A program made the translations under genes and the position numbers. From Raillietiella orientalis (taxonomy: Eukaryota): a stretch of 64,000 nucleotides of DNA. The DNA is taken from contig JAYWIR010000026.1 of assembly GCA_036172245.1 (NCBI GenBank), positions 682,001 through 746,000 of the forward strand, written 5' to 3'. How positions within the stretch are numbered: position 1 is the first letter of the stretch; every line of letters begins with the position of its first letter. Positions 51,284 to 64,000 of the stretch are shown in pieces. The notes beneath the pieces were generated by a model. That model searched no databases. It was not told where the DNA came from and saw only the letters and a program-made list of their open reading frames with translations.

Positions 51284-54200
51284 TCAGTTTTCTTTTAGTG
51301 AATATATCCAAGGATTCGATGAAACTATGTTCGTGAAGAACGTGTACGGGGAAAAACAGCTGGCATCCCAGGAACTCAAACCTACCAGATACAGTTTGCC
51401 CTTGGTTCCCCGGCAGACCAGAGGTTCTCCTTTCTGACACTGGATCGAGGTCGACATGACAGGGGGGCAAAACCCGCCAACTCACCCGACATCCTTCCCT
51501 GTTCAGCCTGGTGCAGAGCAGCTCTGGGTCCAGCTTGAAATCGGGTCCCAGGACCGACTGCTGCAATCCCTTCTGGCAAGTTTCGTGCGTGTCAAGGCTT
51601 ATTTTATCGAAACCAGATTCATTGTCTGCAAGAGTAGTTGTTGGTTTTTTTTCTTTTGGTTTCAAGTGCTCTTCGCTTTTAACATACTTCTGAAGACTCC
51701 TTCCTTCTTCCACACGTAACAGTTTGGTTCTCCCAGTTCATCCGGCTCGTCCATCAGGCAGAGAAAGGAGCGAGGCCAGGATCCGGCTATCCTGAGAATG
51801 GCGAGATCATTCCGACGATAATCGAGAGAAAATTTCGGGTGCTGGTGGATGATTTCCAATGGAAACAGCTGCTTCGTGGACGTCAAGACCTCCAGATGGT
51901 CGATGGAAGAGATTCCCCTGAAAGTTCCACAGTTTTCGTCAAGGCGACAACGGAATTTTTCCCGCCGGGTGATGAAAGCGTTACTGGGGGGATCTGATTA
52001 AATAGGCTCTGGCTAATAGCCGTGTTCCAGAATTAGTAGCCGAGCACGTCCGGAGCAACTGGTTGGATCTTCAACGATAGGGAGCGATATTCCGAACCGC
52101 AACGGAAGTTACAGTTGACTCTAACCACCGTGATGAAAAATACGAGCAGGTTCTTGTGGAAGTGAGAGTGGTCCACAAGAGGAGAGTAATCATTCGAAAA
52201 GTCACCAGGAAGAGAGAAACTGGGAGAAGGGAAACGTCCCAGGAATTCCCGAGGCTCCATAAGAATCACGTGCACTTCAGACCCGAAAGTGCCGAAGTGA
52301 AGTTGCCCTATCACACAGGGTTGCCTCCGCTCGGGGAAAGACTAAGGTATGAGGGACCGAAAAAAAAAAAAAAAAAAAAGGAGAGAGGTAGAAAACAGGA
52401 CGGGAAATGGAGCTGGTCTGTCTTTACCGATTTTCCTTCAGGCAGTGAGCGGCTGTGACCAGGTGCTTGCTCGAGATGAACGTCGCCTCGCAGAGGTAAG
52501 TCCTGTTGCGCAGCAGCACAGCCTGGGTGTCCCTCAGCTCGTTTTCCACGCCGTCTGAGCAACGGTGCTTCTCGAGGGGGCAGCACACTCCCAGGGTCCT
52601 GGAATTAACTTCGCAGGGCTGTCGCCGCGCCGCGCGCCGTCCTGGAACTCCGAATCTCTGTGACTCACCATGTGTAAGCCAGGGGAATTGCAGGTGAATT
52701 CCGGGACGCATCTGCTGGACTGATCGCAATTCCTGGGGAACAGGATGCCTCCGGAGCTGCTCCTGTTGTCCTCCGGGGAGTGGAAGAACGTCGCTGTGTT
52801 CATCAGCACGCTTGACAAGTCAACCGGAGGGCTTGTGCTGCTGGTGTCGGGAACGTGAGAAGATCCCGCGACTATCCCGACGGCGGTCGTCCTTTTGTAT
52901 TCCTCCTCGGACGCTCCATGAAACTGCAAGTCCTGGACGGCGGGGCCTGGCTTCTTTTCAAAGAAAGACAGGATTTGAGATCCTCGTTTGGGCAGCTCGC
53001 TGGCGTCCACCGCTATGGTTCGGTTCCCGTGCACAATTTTCACTTGAGCGCCGGTCCAGAACTCTTTCGAGAGGTTGTAGACCCCCTCCACGATTATCGT
53101 TCCGGAGGCGAGGCCTCCGGTCCCTCCTGGGTGGTCCTTGGAGGTCACCGGACGGAACATCAGCACGCTCCCGTTCGGGTATATCTCCCGCAGGTCTTTC
53201 AGCTGCGGGAGCGGTCCCTCGTTCGAGTAGTACAAGACGAAGAGCGCATCCTGCTGCTGCGCGCCTTCCTTGCTCACGAAGTCGAACGTGTAGCTGCTCG
53301 GCGTGTACTTCAGGAAACCCACCGCCATGACCGGAGGGGGGGGCGCGCCAAAGGTCGCATCCGCGGCAGCGACGGGCACCAGCATGAACTCCAGCTTCTT
53401 GGTGGGCTTCTTCGGAGCGGGGGTCCCGCTGAGATTCCCGAACCACTTGCCTTCCTGCGCGAGGAAGAAGCCCAGCAGGTCGGAGATCTGGTTGCCGACC
53501 AGCAGCTCTTCGATCTCGGCTCTCTGGACGGAGGCCAAGTGACCGCTCATGTAGGACGGAGCGGCCGAAGGAATCTCGTACTTCGCCGTGTGCGTCCAGT
53601 ATTGGGTCGCCCTCTGGGCGCCGCCCTGCTGGAAGAAATCGACCAGTATGGAGGGTATGTTCTGCAGGCCCGAGTGCTTCTGGAAGAAATCGACGAGGAT
53701 GGTGGGAGTCTGCTGGGGAACCAGGTTTCCCTGAACAAAGTCCATGGTTATGGGAGGAACTTCATAGATCGAGTATCCTGTCAGGTTTTGGATCTGGTGT
53801 AGCACGTCCATGGCTTCTTGGACGCTCGGCGAAATCTGGATCGGGGTCAGCTGCTGCCATGTGTAGCCGGAAGAGGAACCGGGCTGACTGTGCGCGGCCG
53901 CGGCGTCGCCGCCGCCACCTTGCAACGAACCAGAAGAGATTTCTTGGAGCGAAACCAACTTGGACAGAGTCCCCTGCTGGAACAACCAGACGTCCTCCAG
54001 CGAATGTCCGCTGAAGCCGCCGCCCGTGACGACGATGGAGCTTTCCGGCAGCTGGGACAAAAATTCAGATGCGTCTTTCCCTCTCAGGAAGTCATCTCGA
54101 AGCAGCACCAGGAGGGTGCCATTTGGGTACAGCCTCTCCAGATCGGAGCAGCTGCTTCTCGAGCCATCGGTGGCGTGCTGATAATGGACGCGCATGAGCG

Positions 54201-57200
54201 TCCCACTGTCCCAGCGGCTGTCCTCTTTGGCTATCTGCATCGAGTACCCTCCTCGTTCGTTGCAGGTCACGTAGATGACGGCTCCCAGGGCAGGTGCGAA
54301 CAAGGTGCTGGTCAAGGTGTAAGGAATTATCCAATATTTCACGCTTCTGGCTATAGTTTCCGTCAGAGGCTGCCTTTGGTTTTGGTAGCTGGCGACGGGC
54401 AGCTGGATGTGGATGCTGGTGACCTGAGGCTTGATCGTCCAAGCCGTAGAGATCGGAGGGGCCGCGCTGGCAGGCTGCCAGAGCGGCATCGGAGGCGGAG
54501 GGTGGCCGCCGCTCACGTTTGGCTTCCCGGAAAAGAGCGAAAGCCAGTACTGGTTTCCCAGCTCGCTCGTGTTGACGACCGACGCTGGAGAGTCCGCGCT
54601 CTGGCCGGAGACAGGATGCAGGGAAGCGGGGTGCTTCGCGCCGAAATTCGAGTCCCAAGGGGAGGGGTTCTGTTCCCAGTAGGAGAAGCTCACCCCTCCT
54701 TCCGCCTTCACCGAAGAGTTGTGTAACACGACGGAATGGTTCGAGGAAGAGCTTCCTCCGCCATGGGGAGGAGCCAGCGGGAAGAACTTCGCCCAGCTGG
54801 ATCCTGGCTGGGGGCGGGACGCGTCGCTGCTTCCCCAGGAGGCGAAAATGATATTCTGGTTCTTGAGGGTCTGAGATGTGCCTGTATCCCCGTCGGGGCT
54901 GCCGCTCTCCCCCTCTGCGCCGGACGACGGCTCCGTCGACGTCTGGGGCCCGCTTTCGCGCCCGGGGCCGTTCTGCTTGGTCCAGTGCTTGGCGAATGCC
55001 TCCCACTTGAGGTCGTTCTTCCGAGACGGCCAGGACGAAGCGGCCGTTGCGACAAGCGCCGACTGAAGGTCCAGCGGCTTCCCGTTCTCCAGGTAGAAAG
55101 ACAGGAACGGCACGTAGGATTTCCGGGATTGCGTGTCGAGAACAAGGACGATGCTGCTGTTCGCGAACGGCAGCGACTCTGACGGGGCGAAGTCCTTCAA
55201 CGAAGCGAAGGAGAGTTCCAGGAGCGTCCCGTTGGCCACATAGGATTCCAGCGGCGTTGGCTCCCTGCCGGCGCCGGGTCTTTCGCCGACGTAGTAGACG
55301 ATGGCCTTCGTGCCGTTGGTCACGGCGTCGCTGTTCTTCCTGATCTCGACCTGGTAACCGTCCTCGGAGCGCTTCAGATAAATCGCTATGGAAGGCATCG
55401 GCCAGTAGAGCTGACCCTGGCCCGCGCACGGGGTTAGCCAGTAGAAATAGCTGTTCTCGCTCTGAAGCAGCTCCAGATCCCTCTCGAAGGCGGTCGAGCG
55501 ACCCGCCCCTTCGGACGCCGCTAGCGTGAAGGAGTAGATGACGACCGGGAACTGGTCGGGCCCCTCACTGAAGGGAGAGGAGGACTGCCTGTCGACGTCC
55601 CAGCCGGGATAGGACGTCAGGGGAGCTTGCTGAGCCCCGCCGACGCCGGGGGACTCGTAGGAGCTCACGGTCGCTTCTCCCAGGGGCGTGGCTCCGAGAG
55701 CCTGCATGTAGAAGACACCGAACTTCTTCGGGTCCCCTCTGCCCGCGGTGATGAGGATGCTGCCAGGGACCGCCGCCGCTTCCAGTTCTTCCCTTGCTAC
55801 TTCCCGGTAGACGAAGAACTCGACGTCAAGCAGCTTGTCGACGATCGGGTAGTCTCGGCTCGCCTGGAACCCACGGGACAGCTGGAACACGTCCCCGTTC
55901 CTGATCTTTCCCGGCAGGCGGGGGATCATCAGGGTGAACCAGTCTTCCGCCTTGCCGACCAGCACGCTGATGACGCGCTGTCTCCGGTCGTCGCGGATCC
56001 TCTGGTAGTCGGGCGCGGGGCTCAGTAGGCCGACGATGGGCTGCTCCTTGGGAGACACGCCCGCGTGGGCGTCTCTCGAGCGGGGCCAGAAGTCGAAGAC
56101 GATGGAGAAATGGTCAAAGGCGCTATTCGAAGGTACCCCTGATTCGGGGGCGCAGTACGTTCTGGAAACCACCTCACGAGGCTCCTTCTGCTCCGAAGGA
56201 ACCTTTCGGAGCTGCCCCAAGTGGTAGGTCTTGTCCGAGAACACCACGAACATTTCCAGGAGGTTGCCGTCGCCGGCGGCATCGTCTTTCCCTCCCACCA
56301 CCAGTGTTCCGGACGCGAAGGGAGGCTTCCTGTCAAGGCCGCCCTGCCAGCTCGTCAGGCCTATCCCGCTTCGAACGTCAATGTCAGGCGACTGCGGTTC
56401 CTCCCTGTTGTACCGGAAGATGGTGCCCTCCGGATAGATGGTTTCCAAGCCGAAGGCGTTCTTCACCGCCAGAGGGGCGTCGCGCAAGTGGTGGACCATC
56501 ACGAACCCCTCTCCGCGCTCGTCGAGATCGTACTTGTTGAGGTGAACCCTGCACTTCCCGCTCTGGCAACGCACGTTCCAGGAACCCGACAGGAAGGCGG
56601 GACCGATTCGATCCAGGTTCGCGTCCTTCCCCTTCGGAGAGTAAAACGGCCAGCTCGCCTTCCTGTCGAGCGACCAGGAATCGTCCTTCCTCATCGGAGT
56701 CAACCAATAGAGGACTTTTCCCGTTTTTCCGTCGAGAGACCAGGAACCGCTGTGCGGGTCCATCTTCACCAGGCTTCTACGGAGCTGCTGCTCCGGAACC
56801 AGTTCGAAGCTGTCGGTCTTCCGCAAGGGCGCCCTCAGGGGCTGACACTTCCCCACCTCTTCCACCGCCTCGTACCTCTTGCTTTCGGAACGGTTCTTGG
56901 AGCTCCAGTCGAACTCCTCTCCGACGAGTTTCCTGCTGATCTTGCCGAGGAGCAGCGTTCCTTCGGGAACGACCAGGTGCATGTCCAGCTCGTAGTCCAG
57001 GGTCCCCGCGTCGGTTTGGGCTTCGGTGAGGATGAGCGTTCCCGACGAGAGCAGGGTGTTCCGAGGGACCGTGCGGTGCAGGGTGACCACGGTGCCGCTG
57101 CGCAGGTAGCGAGCGATGTTGCTCTGTGACGCGAACTCCAGCACTTCCTCCGATGGGTATAAGGCAAGCCTGCTGCCTTCCTCCCAGTGGTCGGTGGTGC

Positions 57201-57537
57201 GGATCAGGTGAACGGAGAAGCCGCTGTCCGCTCTTCTGATCAGGACGTGGCCGTCCAGGCGCGGCTGCCCCTCCGACGCTCTCTCGTCGATCGTAAACAG
57301 GTACTTCGTCTTTCCGGGAAACTTCTGCGAGGCGACAAAGTTGCCTGGGAGGGATGCGCTCGGGCGGAAGACGTAGTTGGCGTGCTCCCGCGCGGTGTCC
57401 TGCGACGACGAACTGTGGTGGTTTTGCAGCGAGGGAACCTGTTTTTCCAGCGAGAAAAGAACTTCCTGCCACGAGTGTTTTCCCGACGAGCGCCCTTGGC
57501 AGCACACGCTCTTTCCCGGTCCGGGACGTGGGCACAG
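51284..57537 (-). CDS. Giant clip-domain serine-protease homolog (non-catalytic, masquerade/CLIPA-like) with six N-terminal repeats; exons 52669-57537, 52428-52618, 51688-51917, 51486-51625, 51284-51439; 5' end unresolved
   Basis: The spliced product contains clip CDQSSRCVPEFTC...|PCEVNSRTLGVCCP, then a trypsin fold: YLCEATFISSKHLVTAAHC (His), HPKF...NDLAIL (Asp), CQKGEPLVC in place of GDSGGPLVC, LVGLSSW, FTNI...WI*. Intron phases match, and the 1759-codon ORF is strongly GC3-biased. Confidence 0.85.
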
Positions 57538-58074
57538 CTGGAATGGGAAATCAGGATGGAATGCAAACTGCCATCTGGCAAGGCTTGCTCGAGGCTTCGG
57601 CGAGGCGAAGAACGGAAGCGCCGCAAATCTCCCCGAGAGCACGGCTCTGTCCTTTCCCCAGCGATCCGTTGCCGCGCCCCCTCTCTCACCCTCCTTGGAG
57701 CCGAACGGCTGCCAATCTAGGACTGGGGGACCAGCCCTACTCAATCTGAGGCCCTCCAAGCTTCCGTATGCAGCCCCACATGCGTAGGAATCGGCCCTAC
57801 TGATTCTCACCAAGATGATGTATTAACCTGTTAAGCGGACAATTCTCACAATTTCAAGAAATGCCACCCGTGGGTGCATAATTAAAAAACTGTCGAAAAC
57901 GGATATACACGTCAAACGCAAAGCATATGTATCTATCAGCAAATGTCAATTTCAACGGAAAAAAAAAATATATTCATAAAAGGTTTCGTTATTGTAAAGA
58001 GAACTTCATATATGAGGAAAATGAGAAGAAAAAAAAACTCCTAAGGAATTGGTTATCTTATGCCCAGATAGGTC

Positions 58075-58386
58075 ATGAGAAAGTTCGAGAACGATGAGAG
58101 TCGCTGTCTCTTATTGAGGACAGTTCTGACCACTGTTCTGTGTTTTTGCCAGTGTGCGCCCGGAAGTTCCAAATGTGTACAGATCGCACCGGGCAAAAAA
58201 TTCCATTCCCAAACGATTCCTTCTGGAAGGCATACGTACCGCTTCCGAGGCAGTCTCCCTCTCCATGGCAACGAGGATCCATCGACACGAATGTCTTGTT
58301 CTAGAATATGTAGGAAAATCCCCATCTACGTTGGATACTTTCCCTGCAAGGGACTGCCAGGATATTGTTCTCAATATCAATATTGA
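58075..58386 (+). pseudogene. Possible secreted PAN/apple-like small protein or fragment
   Basis: Hydrophobic N-terminus (CLLLRTVLTTVLCFCQC) and SCSRICRKIPIYVGY...CSQY cysteine spacing. One expected Cys is missing and the downstream frame is broken. Confidence 0.25.
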
Positions 58387-59949
58387 GATGGGAGCATTTC
58401 ATTTCTGCCCTGTCGGATGCCAATTTCTCATCCTTGAAGAATGAATTCCAATACATTGCCTTGCATACAAATTAGTCCGTTTCACAGTTATGGACATTGG
58501 TTTCTTATCCAAAAATCGATCCAGATAAAACGAGCACTTCTTCCTTGATCTTCTGGGTGCAGCTGAATCGCTGACCAGGCTTTCCAGGAAAAACAAAAAG
58601 AAAATTTCGTTTCCATCTAACATAGGTCACTTTTTGCCAAAACTACTCGTTTGAAGCCTTACTCGAGGAAAATCATTACTTTCCTCTATTAGAGCTTCCA
58701 CCGTGTAAAAGGGGTATGTAAACAAACCCAGTATGTAAAAAAGAAGAATTTTTTGTTGGGTTGCCGTGCCTCACTTCAAAAACGTTTCGATAAAGTACAC
58801 AAATAAGTACACAAATAAATGAGGCTGTTTTCACTTTTTGCACTAAAATTTCGCATTTTGATAACAAGGAGTCATTTTTTCCCCCACACTGCATACATAT
58901 CCGTCAAACGCACCACAGCGGCGACTTTGTATACAAACGTACACATTCGTCAAACTCGCTTGACAGGTTAAGAATACCATGTAGCAATTGCAAATCTGAT
59001 ATATCCAAAACAGTCAAAAAGTCGCAGCATCAAACACTAATTTTTAAATAAACCCTTGGGTTTCGTCTATATTTTGAGTTGATTTTTTTACACGACTATG
59101 TTACAATATACAGAGTACCATGTACAGCCCGCGTATTATCGCAAACTGTACGCATGCGGTCCGAGAAGAAGGTCGAGCATGACCGGTTGGGACGGTGAGC
59201 CGCGAGCAAACGCCCCTGCCCTCAAGCGGAATCGCAAGACACTCGCGAAAGTTCACGGCAATTCCGAAAGAGAGCACGGTCATCCATCTATCCCCCGAAG
59301 AAATGCCTCGGTTCAGGGGGGGGAAACATGAAAATGCTGGGGAGGGGGAAAGAGAAGGGATCGCAGATTTCTTCCAGGAGAGCACTCAGCATCGTCTGAA
59401 GGATGCAAGAAACATCCTCCTTTTGTTGGCGGAGATGTGGCCATCTTGTCTCCTTCCTCATGCACCAGAAGATGCTGAGGAGCCAGGAAGAAATCCCTTC
59501 CCTTCCCCCCCTCTCAACATTTTTTTTCAACTGAACTTTTGTGTGTTTGCGTGTTATTCGTGTGTTTTTGTTTACCCCTTTTCCCCCACTCCTCCTGTGA
59601 GCACCTCACCGGGCAAGCAGCTCGAGAGAAGCAGCGTCCCCGAGGCATTTCACTTCGCAATGGCCATGTGAAGCCACTACCAAAAAACCCAATATTTTTT
59701 CTATTTTGAAAGACAGCTTTTTTTTTTTGTAACTATTTTTTTCACAATAAACTCCTCGGCGTGACCAAGCGGAATAAAGAATGCCTCAGAAATCCGGACA
59801 GCGCCGCCTGGGTTGCCAGACCGAGGCCGGCCGACTTGTGCCTTCGAACATTTAACACTTATGCAATGAAAGTTTAGCAGGTGGTTACCTAATTAGAGTG
59901 TTCGACCATTTTTTGAACCTATGTTCACCTTTTTGCGCAGGAGTGTTCG

Positions 59950-61400
59950 GTGCCTCAGGCTACCGATCTGGTCGGAATCGGAAAATTCGCTGCTGCAAAT
60001 TCCTCGATGAGGATCCCTCCCACTCCCTTCCCAGTTGGAAAAAACGCGCTCATATCTCAAGAGAAAATGCTGTTTGCTGCTCCTGGGGAAAGTCTGATGA
60101 GACATCCCAGAGCACAGAAGCAGACCAGGCGGTCCAGCTGCTGGGTTTCTGGAATATCTCGCCTGACCACCTGGAGTCGTCCACGTATTCTCACGTCGCC
60201 GGAATCCTTTCAGAGGCCCGCGAAAAAGCCAACCATCCGTCTTGCGCCGCCCCTGCCTCCTCGTTCTCATCCATTTATCCCTTTTGTTGTTTTACGGGAG
60301 AACGAATTCAGCGGCATCCGCAGAGTTCTTCTCCCAACTGAAGTGCAGCGCGTTTCTTCGAGCCATCCGGAAGCACGCCCCAAGAGTGAATGTGCCCAAA
60401 ATCCTCCAAAACAACGGCGACAACAGCAACGGAATTCTTCTGATTCGTCTCCGCTGGGCGTGGAACGAAAACGCCGCGTCCTTAGGTGCTGCTCCTGTGA
60501 ATCTTCAGCCGGAACTATGGAGACGAGTGAAGGCCGTGAAGGCTCGGTATCGTGTTTTGGTGGGCAGATCGGAAGAGGCACCGGGGGAACGAGATCTGCA
60601 TCACCGCGAGGCAAAAAAACTCAAGGTGCTCCGGATGCTTGGAAACGAAGCTGCCGCCGAAGTGACGTTCCGTTGCCCGGACGGGACCTTTCCCGGTTCG
60701 GGAACACGCCTTCTCCTCGCGCTGGACGGTGGACTTCTTCGGACGGAGCGCGGTGCGTCTTTTCTTCCGACCGATCATTGACGGGGGCGCACGCTGGAGC
60801 CCAGGTGGAGGCAGCAATCTCTTCTCACCCGGTCGCGCCGGGGAACAGACAGGAATCTCGAAGTGGGCAACACGAAGTCAAGCATGGCGGAAACCGCCCC
60901 GGAGGCGACGGTGCCGACTTCCGGCGATCGGAAGTCGTACGCTCCCTCTCCCCGTAGGAGGAGGAGGAGGAAACGCAACACACCCACGGAAAATAAGAAT
61001 CCTAGGCGATGCAGCAGAAAGATGATGGACTCTGTCCGCACTCTTGAGCAAACTCAACCCTCTCTCCAGCTGTTCCCCGCGCCCTGGTCCCTGGAGGAAC
61101 CAAAAAACGAAACAAAGGAAAGGGAAGATTCCTTTGGGCAGTGTCCGCCACCTGCAGCCACCTTTTCCAGCTGCGGAGACCTGCAAGCTCTTCTTGCACC
61201 TCGCTCACAGAGTTCAAGAGTTCAGCAGGGGAAACGCTCCAGGAACGCCGGGTTCGCGGGTCCCTTTGGCCACCACCTGAAGACCAGCAATGATCTCGAT
61301 GCACGTGCGATACGAGTGCCATCTACCCAGACGAGCCCGCGTCCGATCCGGGAACCCTCTGGAATCGTTTTGATCGTAAATCCCAGGTGAGTCCCACTTG
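59950..61400 (+). mobile_element. Possible decayed ORF1-like retroelement remnant
   Basis: VLRMLGNEAAAEVTFRCPDGTFPGSGTRLLL resembles the L..G.V..V.F...P...GTR segment of L1/Tx1 ORF1, in a GC-rich block. Confidence 0.3.
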
Positions 61401-61870
61401 CAGGTGATCCCTCAGACGCGCACGCTCTTGCGCATAGGGTGCCCACTACTCTTCGCTACTCTGAACTTCAAATCGCTGCGCTTCTTTTCTTTCTTTCTTT
61501 CCTTTTTGCGTGTGCGTTCTCTGAGGTGTTGCTGTCGCGTGCGTGTCTTTTTGCGCGTGCAATTCTCTGAACTGAAATTGCAAACTCGGATGACTCGTGG
61601 AACCCAAACATCCCGTGGGAAAGACAGGAGCTCCCGCAGAGAGGGGGGGCAGCAACGCTTCCCTATGGTTGCGCTTCGCCTCTCCGTTTCTCTATGGGAA
61701 CGTTGGCCCTCTCATCCACAGGGGGCGCCCGTCTCGACTGAAGCAACGCGCGTAACCTTGACGCCGCTGCTCTAATAATAGATCTACTCTGATAATAGAA
61801 CCACCTCCGGGCTGAAAAGAATCCGCGCGCAACAATGCGCTGTCGCGAGAAGGCGGAGCCACGCCACGCC

Positions 61871-62458
61871 CGCTTGAGCGACGCGCCATCACCCCACGCC
61901 AACCGACACGGGTGCAACGCCCCACGTGAGGGGTTTCCCCCCCCCCCCCTTCTGACCGCAGGGGGGTCGAAGTTCCGGAAAAGCAAGAGAGGTGACGGCA
62001 GCTCTGGAGCCAGGCCGCGTCCGCTTGAGCGACGCGCCATCACCCCGCGCCAACCGACACGGGTGCAACGCCCCACGTGAGGGGTTTCCCCCCCCCCCTT
62101 CTGACCGCAGGGGGGTCGAAGTTCCGGAAAAGCAAGAGAGGTGACGGCAGCTCTGGAGCCAGGCCGCGTCCGCTTGAGCGACGCGCCATCACCCCGCGCC
62201 AACCGACACGGGTGCAACGCCCCACGTGAGGGGTTTCCCCCCCCCCCTTCTGACCGCAGGGGGGTCGAAGTTCCGGAAAAGCAAGAGAGGTGACGGCAGC
62301 TCTGGAGCCAGGCCGCGTCCGCTTGAGCGACGCGCCATCACCCCGCGCCAACCGACACGGGTGCAACGCCCCACGTGAGGGGTTTCCCCCCCCCCCCTTC
62401 TGACCGCAGGGGGGTCAAAGTTCCGGAAAAGCAAGAGAGGTGACGGCAGCTCTGGAGC
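61871..62458. repeat. Tandem array of four ~149-151-bp GC-rich units
   Basis: CGCTTGAGCGACGCGCCATCACCCC starts at 61871, 62022, 62171 and 62320. Units are near-identical apart from poly-C length. Confidence 0.97.
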
Positions 62459-64000
62459 TCCGTCCGGGGGGAAGCACTCTTCTGCTCCTGACGTTCACTG
62501 CGGCGTTTGGACGCGCGTTCCGAAGGAACGGAGGCGGACGAACGGTGGGGACTCTTTGGGTGGTGCAGCGGCACGGGGGAGAGGGAAGGCTTGGGTGAGC
62601 ATCCTCTCCATCCGCGCCTGCCGGTCAGCTCCCCACCAGCGTTCCTCAACCGAAATCCGTGCTCGCGCGCGCTCCCACGAACATTTCTCTCATCGCCTCG
62701 CTCGGCTCGGAAAGCATCATCTGCGTACTTACAATGTACGACACTCTGTGTTTGATGCGTTCGTCGTCTGGGTCGGGGGTCTCCTTGAGGAATCCTTGCC
62801 AATCGCAGTCCTTCAGCGGTACGCAGACCATGCTTGCAGGACACGAAGAAAACCCCTGAGCGAACTGCAGGCCGTCCTCATGCAGGGTCCACACGTCCAG
62901 GCGCCTCAGATCTGGAAGTCAGAGATTCGCGATCCGATCGGACTGCGCCCACCCCGAAGGCGCTCTCGGTTTGACCGCAGCGGACGTCTTTTCCTTCCAG
63001 AAGCTTCCCGACATCGGCGGGGAGGTTCTGTCCTTGCGAGGGACGCGCCGGGCAAAAGCGACCGCGATCTCTGTCGTCTCTCCCTGTTGCGAGCGAAGGC
63101 GACCGAACCCTCGAGGAGAGTTCACGGGCAACAAATTTGTGTCCCTCTTGCACGATGTGGCAGCAGGGAATGGATTTGAATGACCCCCCCCCCCACACAC
63201 ACACACTTCCTTCCCCGTCGCTCAAGGTCGAGTTGGGTTCATGCTCGGCTCCAAAGACTGCGAAATCGACAAAAGCGACGACTGTGCACGCGGACGAAGC
63301 TCTTCGCAAAGTTCTTCACTCCTTTCCCTCCCACTGGACTCTGTCCTCCCGCTGACAGCCCAGTACGGTAGACCGCGGAAGCAATCCTCGTCTGACTGGC
63401 GCCGACCTCCCAGCGGCTTGGGTCAAAGAGCTGGGGGAACAAACAGATGGCGAGGAGTGCCTACGAGTCCGACCAGTGCGCTCAGAAGAACTCAGCTGCA
63501 GGGTGCGGCACCTGAAAGACGGACTGCTTTTCGCCGCAGAGCCGCGGGCGAGGCGTTTTGGGGTTGTGTGGGTGCCATGCCCATCGCGTGCGCTGACGTC
63601 ACACCGCGAAGTCAGGGATCCCAGTCGCCCATTCTGCGGGACTCTGCAGCATGATTTCCAACGAAGGGAGGTCGGGGAAGGAGAGGCGACTCTGTCAGAG
63701 GAGGAATTCGGGGCGAGCTGGTGCGGGATGCGTGTGGTGCGTGAGCCGGGAGCGGGATGACGAGCCAACCAGCTGAGGGTCCTCAGCGAAAGAAGTGCCG
63801 AAGTTCGCGGAAGCTCTCCTCTCCTGCTTCGTCCGCGGAAGTGGCTTCCAGCTGCTCGACTCCGACGGACTTTTTGACTCTTGAGGGAATTCGGTGCAGG
63901 GAGTTCATGGATTGCGCCCTCCGCACGCACACGTTTTTCTGGATCGGTAGGCAACGCGGCGCAAACGCAGTGGCGCCGTTCCCTCGAAGAGTGGCCGGCG

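Follow-up and report, generated by a model that had tools for sequence, protein, structure and literature searches.

We analyzed a locus on the minus strand of a 64,000-nucleotide stretch of the Raillietiella orientalis genome (hereafter the window; assembly GCA_036172245.1, contig JAYWIR010000026.1, positions 682,001 to 746,000), where a giant exon precedes a series of exons resembling parts of a serine protease. A stop-free frame of 1762 codons, referred to as P0001, runs through window positions 52534-57822 of this strand. An earlier note on the same DNA had reported one giant exon with six repeated stretches (R1 to R6), fused to a clip-domain pseudoprotease, and upon translation the open frame, the six stretches and the quoted motifs were all found where it had placed them. 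The giant exon (Table 1) contains, in order, the second half of a clip-type cysteine pattern (Cys4, Cys5-Cys6; clip 1), six stretches of module size together with linkers, and Cys1-Cys3 of another such pattern, its first half (clip 2). The repeat region would lie between two clip-type cysteine patterns, each split by an intron, an arrangement that had not been described before for this DNA.

The giant exon is coding sequence and not a chance open frame in GC-rich DNA, as indicated by its stop-free frame, the other five frames having 11-53 stops each, and by the excess of GC at the third codon position (0.58, 0.47 and 0.79 at positions 1, 2 and 3, respectively). The longest open stretch in the other five frames was 490 codons. 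We also noticed that the giant exon overlaps with long open reading frames (490 and 328 codons) in other frames (54092-55564 on the minus strand, 56143-57129 and 52816-53802 on the plus strand); these are an expected by-product of GC-rich coding DNA, given the third-position value, and not genes. Since P0001 has no Met in its first ~280 residues, the giant exon needs an upstream partner exon.

The exon chain was derived from GT..AG sites, phase fit and domain patterns in the DNA sequence. From the giant exon on, it comprises five exons separated by introns of 50, 510, 62 and 46 nucleotides (nt), all with GT..AG borders and fitting phases, and the spliced five-exon chain has 1861 codons with one terminal stop. 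On its 5' side, the giant exon has a strong acceptor (…TTCCCATTCCAG) at 57538 and opens with a Cys, nine residues and a Cys-Cys pair, i.e. the second half of the clip pattern; about 5.2 kb upstream, a candidate exon carries Cys-x5-Cys-x5-Cys and a donor that is phase-compatible with the giant exon. At its 3' end, the giant exon shows Cys-x5-Cys-x5-Cys followed by a GTGAGT donor, and removal of the 50-nt intron shifts the reading to a frame with Cys-x9-Cys-Cys and, in the same exon, TAAHC. Clip 2 straddles the junction between the giant exon and the protease exons, which is the best sequence-level argument that they belong to one transcription unit. The physical tie between the giant exon and the protease-like exons, claimed earlier, is therefore supported by a splice-compatible exon chain.

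With the predicted splices, the Cys spacings of clip 1 are 5, 5, 25 and 9 followed by CC, with a span of 50 residues, and this pattern would be group-2-like; those of clip 2 are 5, 5, 8 and 9 followed by CC, with a span of 33 residues, which on the same splice predictions would be group-1-like. Both patterns agree with the clip features listed in the available part of PMC1761132: six Cys N-terminal to a protease domain, adjacent Cys5 and Cys6, a gap of five residues separating Cys2 from Cys3, and a total Cys1-Cys6 span of 30-70 residues. In Pfam scans, the upstream exon, which holds half a domain, matched CLIP_1 of the PPAF-2 type (E 0.03, 14.7 bits with a cut-off of 26, profile positions 5-26 of 52) and CLIP_SPH_Scar (E 0.05, 14.2 bits with a cut-off of 25), and the other three half-clip pieces gave no Pfam match. 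The intron predicted within clip 1 harbors a 149-bp tandem repeat (61855-62458, 4.0 copies, 98% match), which upon translation gives long spurious open frames on the minus strand. If the 50-, 46- and 62-nt introns (52619-52668, 51440-51485 and 51626-51687) are genuine, some introns of this genome come close to the minimum size for arthropods.

The part downstream of clip 2 resembles an S1 protease domain. Three exon pieces, scanned singly and not as a spliced chain, matched PF00089 (Trypsin) collinearly (Table 1), and exon pieces also matched solved S1 proteases at corresponding chain positions: the exon with TAAHC gave weak matches at about chain residues 12-45, and the last exon matched TMPRSS6 with E 8.9e-4. 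Of the catalytic motifs, those with His (TAAHC) and Asp (NDLAIL) are retained, whereas CQKGEPLVC stands in place of the expected CQGDSGGPLVC, being two residues shorter and lacking the Ser. In the available text of PMC1761132, a serine protease homolog (SPH) is defined by the absence of at least one catalytic-triad residue from the TAAHC, DIAL and GDSGGP motifs. As GDSGGP is replaced here while TAAHC and NDLAIL are kept, the S1-like domain is by this definition a predicted SPH that has lost its catalytic Ser.

Table 1. Features of the locus in window coordinates, ordered from 5' to 3' on the minus strand. Bits are leave-one-out profile scores, followed by the number of 1000 shuffles reaching the real score.
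Feature	Position	Strand	Residues of P0001	Remarks
Candidate upstream exon, clip 1 first half (Cys1-Cys3)	62733..62911	minus		acceptor ...TTCCAG, donor GTAAGT; 5' limit approximate
Predicted intron in clip 1	57538..62732	minus		5195 nt; phase-0 match of donor and acceptor
Giant exon	52669..57537	minus		4869 nt, 1623 codons; stop-free frame, codon bias
Module copy R1	56929..57312	minus	171-298	17.2 bits, 0/1000
Module copy R2	56200..56721	minus	368-541	two long insertions; 12.4 bits, 0/1000
Stretch R3	55663..56115	minus	570-720	possible decayed copy, not statistically secured
Module copy R4	55048..55452	minus	791-925	34.0 bits, 0/1000
Sequon Asn in R4	55231-55233	minus	864	
Module copy R5	53938..54345	minus	1160-1295	36.9 bits, 0/1000
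Sequon Asn in R5	54121-54123	minus	1234	
Module copy R6	52990..53400	minus	1475-1611	13.1 bits, 0/1000
Sequon Asn in R6	53173-53175	minus	1550	
Predicted intron in clip 2	52619..52668	minus		50 nt, GT..AG
Exon, clip 2 second half and protease-like start (TAAHC)	52428..52618	minus		Trypsin profile 13-46, 22.0 bits
Protease-like exon, Asp motif NDLAIL	51688..51917	minus		Trypsin profile 55-98, 17 bits; splice sites
Protease-like exon, mid-domain	51486..51625	minus		two Cys at expected places; read from sequence; phases fit; its open reading frame without profile match
Last exon, C-terminal strand and stop codon	51284..51439	minus		Trypsin profile 181-220, 19.5 bits

The six stretches of the giant exon correspond to a module of ~130 residues, and their likeness to each other was examined by several comparisons. 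In the pairwise test, in which the Smith-Waterman score was compared with 200 shuffles per pair, the highest z was obtained for R4-R5 (14.6), followed by R5-R6 (7.9), R1-R4 (6.2), R4-R6 (4.1), R1-R5 (3.8) and R1-R2 (3.4), with R2 scoring 2.7 against R5 and 2.3 against R6. In the leave-one-out test, a profile hidden Markov model was built without a given copy and the score of this copy was compared with those of 1000 shuffles of it; for R1, R2, R4, R5 and R6 none of the shuffles reached the real score (Table 1). Alignment by hhalign of the four-copy core profile with R2 extended over 111 columns (E 1.2e-4, probability 55%), in comparison to 5-17 columns with E 0.71 and 0.2 for two long linkers used as controls. 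Judged by these sequence comparisons, R1, R2, R4, R5 and R6 are to be taken as genuine copies, alike beyond chance.

The status of R3 is different. Its top pairwise z was 2.7 (with R4), and four of its five pairs were at chance level (z <=0.2); in the leave-one-out test it scored -0.6 bits, a value reached by 48 of 1000 shuffles, and 5.9 bits, reached by 1 of 1000, when R2 was included in the profile. The hhalign match of the core profile to R3 covered only 24-26 columns around the central motif (E 0.0046-0.041). The start-to-start spacing of the first four stretches (197, 202 and 221 residues) fits R3 as a copy, and in one alignment its strands were placed collinearly with those of the other copies. 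R3 is possibly, at best, a decayed copy, so that of the six mutually aligning repeats proposed before, five are retained and one is marginal.

The copies are very diverged, as BLASTP of P0001 against itself returned only the identity match and no internal repeat. The copies now share 15-32% identity, with 15-31% to R4 in the multiple alignment, and Tandem Repeats Finder reported no array in the giant exon. Extra copies of the module were found neither in the six frames of the 64-kb window nor in the rest of P0001 or its two long linkers. An extension of the module by ~40 residues at its N-terminal side was tried and gave no convincing alignment.

As to composition, the copies R1 to R6 contain 0, 2, 0, 1, 2 and 0 Cys, respectively, which bears out their earlier description as nearly Cys-free. 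The linkers, described there as rich in Ser, Pro and Gly, have a Ser, Thr, Pro and Gly fraction of 0.28-0.43, compared with 0.28 in the modules; this description holds for some linkers (up to 0.43) and not for others, which are at the level of the modules. In the linker between R5 and R6 we also observed ILVDFFQ twice, 17 residues apart and in similar contexts (53629-53700, residues 1375-1398 of P0001), i.e. a short local duplication. In R4, R5 and R6, the Asn of the central motif belongs to an N-x-S/T sequon (Asn-Gly-Thr/Ser), and the motif has no Asn in R1 (Ser-Gly-Thr) and R2 (Glu-Gly-Thr). This Asn may mark a conserved glycan site or simply a turn.

Next to these internal comparisons stand the searches for relatives and known families. 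No Pfam family was found in the whole of P0001 at E <=1, and the six copies scanned singly at E <=10 gave only DUF3006, in one of the six (E 0.072). With no Pfam family assigned, the module is still an unrecognized one, as had been noted. A profile of the copies compared with the sequences in the PDB gave a best E of 0.17 (IL-33), which we took as chance. Exhaustive phmmer of residues 560-1640, covering R3 to R6, against 1.84 billion representative proteins returned nothing at E <=0.001. Word-indexed searches, which are weak evidence of absence, gave none of 7999 scored candidates at E <=0.001 for residues 170-1620, nothing at E <=0.1 for a five-copy profile against longer proteins, and 14 candidates, none of them at E <=0.001, for the Asp-motif exon against longer proteins. 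There was no usable match in the ESM Atlas for R5 or for residues 96-1718. We also considered whether the central motif resembles the beginning of the N-terminal beta-glucan-recognition domain (CBM39), and dropped this idea, as Pfam gave no such match.

We also obtained structure models of the module by two AlphaFold2 runs on internal-repeat alignments. The predicted local distance difference test (pLDDT) and predicted template modeling (pTM) scores were 55.6 and 0.46 for one model, and 50.0 and 0.48 for the other. Mostly strands were predicted in both, at low confidence, and this weakly suggests a strand-rich module. The proposal that the module is beta-rich thus agrees with the predominance of strands in the two models, while their low confidence speaks against relying on it. 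Because the pLDDT values are too poor, fold matches have no meaning here; the fold search with the first model gave only weak generic matches, which were not used as evidence.

Alternatively, the module may be a beta-sandwich domain of a known kind (Ig/FN3-like, carbohydrate-binding or similar), too diverged to be recognized by its sequence. Against this explanation stand the per-copy Pfam scan, with its single match to DUF3006, and the chance-level best match to the PDB sequences. We consider this explanation a possibility well short of even; it overlaps on architecture with the reading that we prefer, in which the module belongs to an intact gene for a clip-domain SPH.

The lack of relatives among the proteins searched, and the position of the modules exactly between the two clips, where other SPHs have only low-complexity linkers according to the accessible part of PMC1761132, would also fit a giant exon of foreign or mobile-element origin that became part of an ordinary two-clip SPH gene by exonisation within its linker. 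However, neither a transposase, integrase or capsid nor any other Pfam match was present in the 1762 residues, and no other copy was found in the six frames of the window. Moreover, both clip halves share an exon with the modules, meaning that there is no insertion boundary. We therefore regard this origin as very improbable.

Taken together, the locus is probably one intact arthropod gene, in which clip 1 would be followed by ~1600 residues, clip 2 and an S1 domain without Ser, and the product would be a large SPH of the extracellular type. The spacer of ~1600 residues would consist of five secure copies and one doubtful copy of an almost Cys-free module, with linkers that show a moderate excess of Ser, Thr, Pro and Gly. 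On the sequence comparisons, the module itself appears to be real and lineage-restricted.

Several points weigh against this reading. Every splice junction was deduced from the sequence, and the weakest of them joins the upstream exon to the giant exon across 5.2 kb. With 46 and 50 nt, two of the introns approach the minimum length in arthropods. Only one of the three Trypsin-matching pieces, that with 22.0 bits, exceeds the cut-off of 20.6 bits, and each match is weak alone; the two clip models are the sole Pfam matches of the 5' region and lie far below their cut-offs. The S1-like exon was without a relative in the word-indexed search, and both models of the module are of low confidence. On the minus strand of 62860-64000 we found no start codon with a hydrophobic leader or signal peptide. 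The gene may start outside the window; the protein is assumed to be secreted, with no leader found in 62912-64000. Finally, the gene as a whole is highly diverged, as would also be expected of a gene that is young or decays fast.

Some of these points would be accounted for if the locus were a decaying or never-functional gene, in which a GC-rich stretch is open by chance or through recent loss and the 46- and 50-nt 'introns' are frameshifts. The very short introns, the failure of the protein searches to find relatives and the missing start codon or signal peptide are all in line with decay, and the local GC-rich DNA does also yield long spurious frames of 490 and 328 codons. However, the frame of the giant exon has 1623 stop-free codons, compared with at most 490 in any other frame, together with a strong third-position GC excess. 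Both supposed frameshifts coincide exactly with GT..AG pairs whose length is right, and their removal restores the clip Cys pattern and the frame matching Trypsin. The copies have also kept their likeness at the protein level though repeats at the DNA level are gone. Thus, we consider decay improbable, though less so than exonisation, and retain the intact SPH gene as the preferred reading.

If the gene is intact, its module copies would have arisen by old internal duplications, and its protein may, like other arthropod SPHs, work non-catalytically. In that case, docking with cascade proteases or prophenoloxidase would fall to the clip and S1-like parts, and the string of modules could attach the protein multivalently to a microbial wall, matrix, cuticle or other surface, or keep it at a distance from one. 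By analogy, the string may be a binding array, in line with the ligand or microbe binding suggested earlier, which we put forward as a tentative and rather doubtful proposal. In the most far-reaching interpretation, the module would be a new family of extracellular domains, perhaps with a fold absent from the PDB, which in a single arthropod lineage arose and multiplied within the linker between the clips of an immune-type SPH and turned a cascade cofactor into a multivalent surface-recognition protein. This seems unlikely, more so than the binding array by itself.

In arthropods, clip-domain SPHs direct melanisation and cascades of the Toll type, and their surface targeting is only partly understood. 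An SPH with a series of modules peculiar to it would offer a natural experiment on the acquisition of recognition parts by these cofactors, and the module would add a new domain family for studies of ligand binding. Extracellular repeats that evolve fast and are restricted to one lineage occur commonly in arthropod genomes, which limits the value of the find.

Crustacean and insect SPHs serve as non-catalytic cofactors of prophenoloxidase-activating proteases, and some of them bind peptidoglycan, lipopolysaccharide, beta-glucan or whole microbes, as described in the available part of PMC4372372. In the portions of PMC4372372 and PMC3665817 that were accessible, Penaeus monodon PmMasSPH1/2, the crayfish Pl-MasI and PlSPH1/2, and the mud-crab Sp-SPH combine a clip with a non-catalytic serine-protease-like part, similar to the architecture predicted here. 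According to the same portions, they bind microbial wall components and support prophenoloxidase activation. PmMasSPH1 consists of a clip and glycine-rich regions and PmMasSPH2 has a single clip, and neither of them has the present module. The PPAF-II-type clip (CLIP_1) and the Scarface clip (CLIP_SPH_Scar) are SPH-type models too, and it was these two that the upstream half-clip exon matched, below threshold and with half a domain scanned.

The closest known arrangement is that of multi-clip SPHs with long non-clip spacers, for which the available part of PMC1761132 gives Drosophila masquerade and the honey-bee cSPH41 (five clips, low-complexity spacers) and cSPH39 (four clips). In a search for orthology with masquerade, no protein was found at E <=0.001 with residues 170-1620, with residues 560-1640 (exhaustive) or with the Asp-motif exon, the word-indexed part of this search being weak. 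The earlier note had proposed a new architecture, and with multi-clip SPHs with long spacers already known from that part of PMC1761132, it is the array of modules between the clips that appears new; such an array is not described in the portions of the clip-domain SPH literature examined, a limited search that does not establish its absence from print. Like masquerade, cSPH41 and cSPH39, as they are portrayed in the accessible text of PMC1761132, the predicted protein has a C-terminal non-catalytic S1 domain, more than one clip and long inter-clip stretches. Unlike them, it has only two clips found so far, and its ~1600-residue spacer would hold five to six foldable-looking modules and not just low-complexity sequence.

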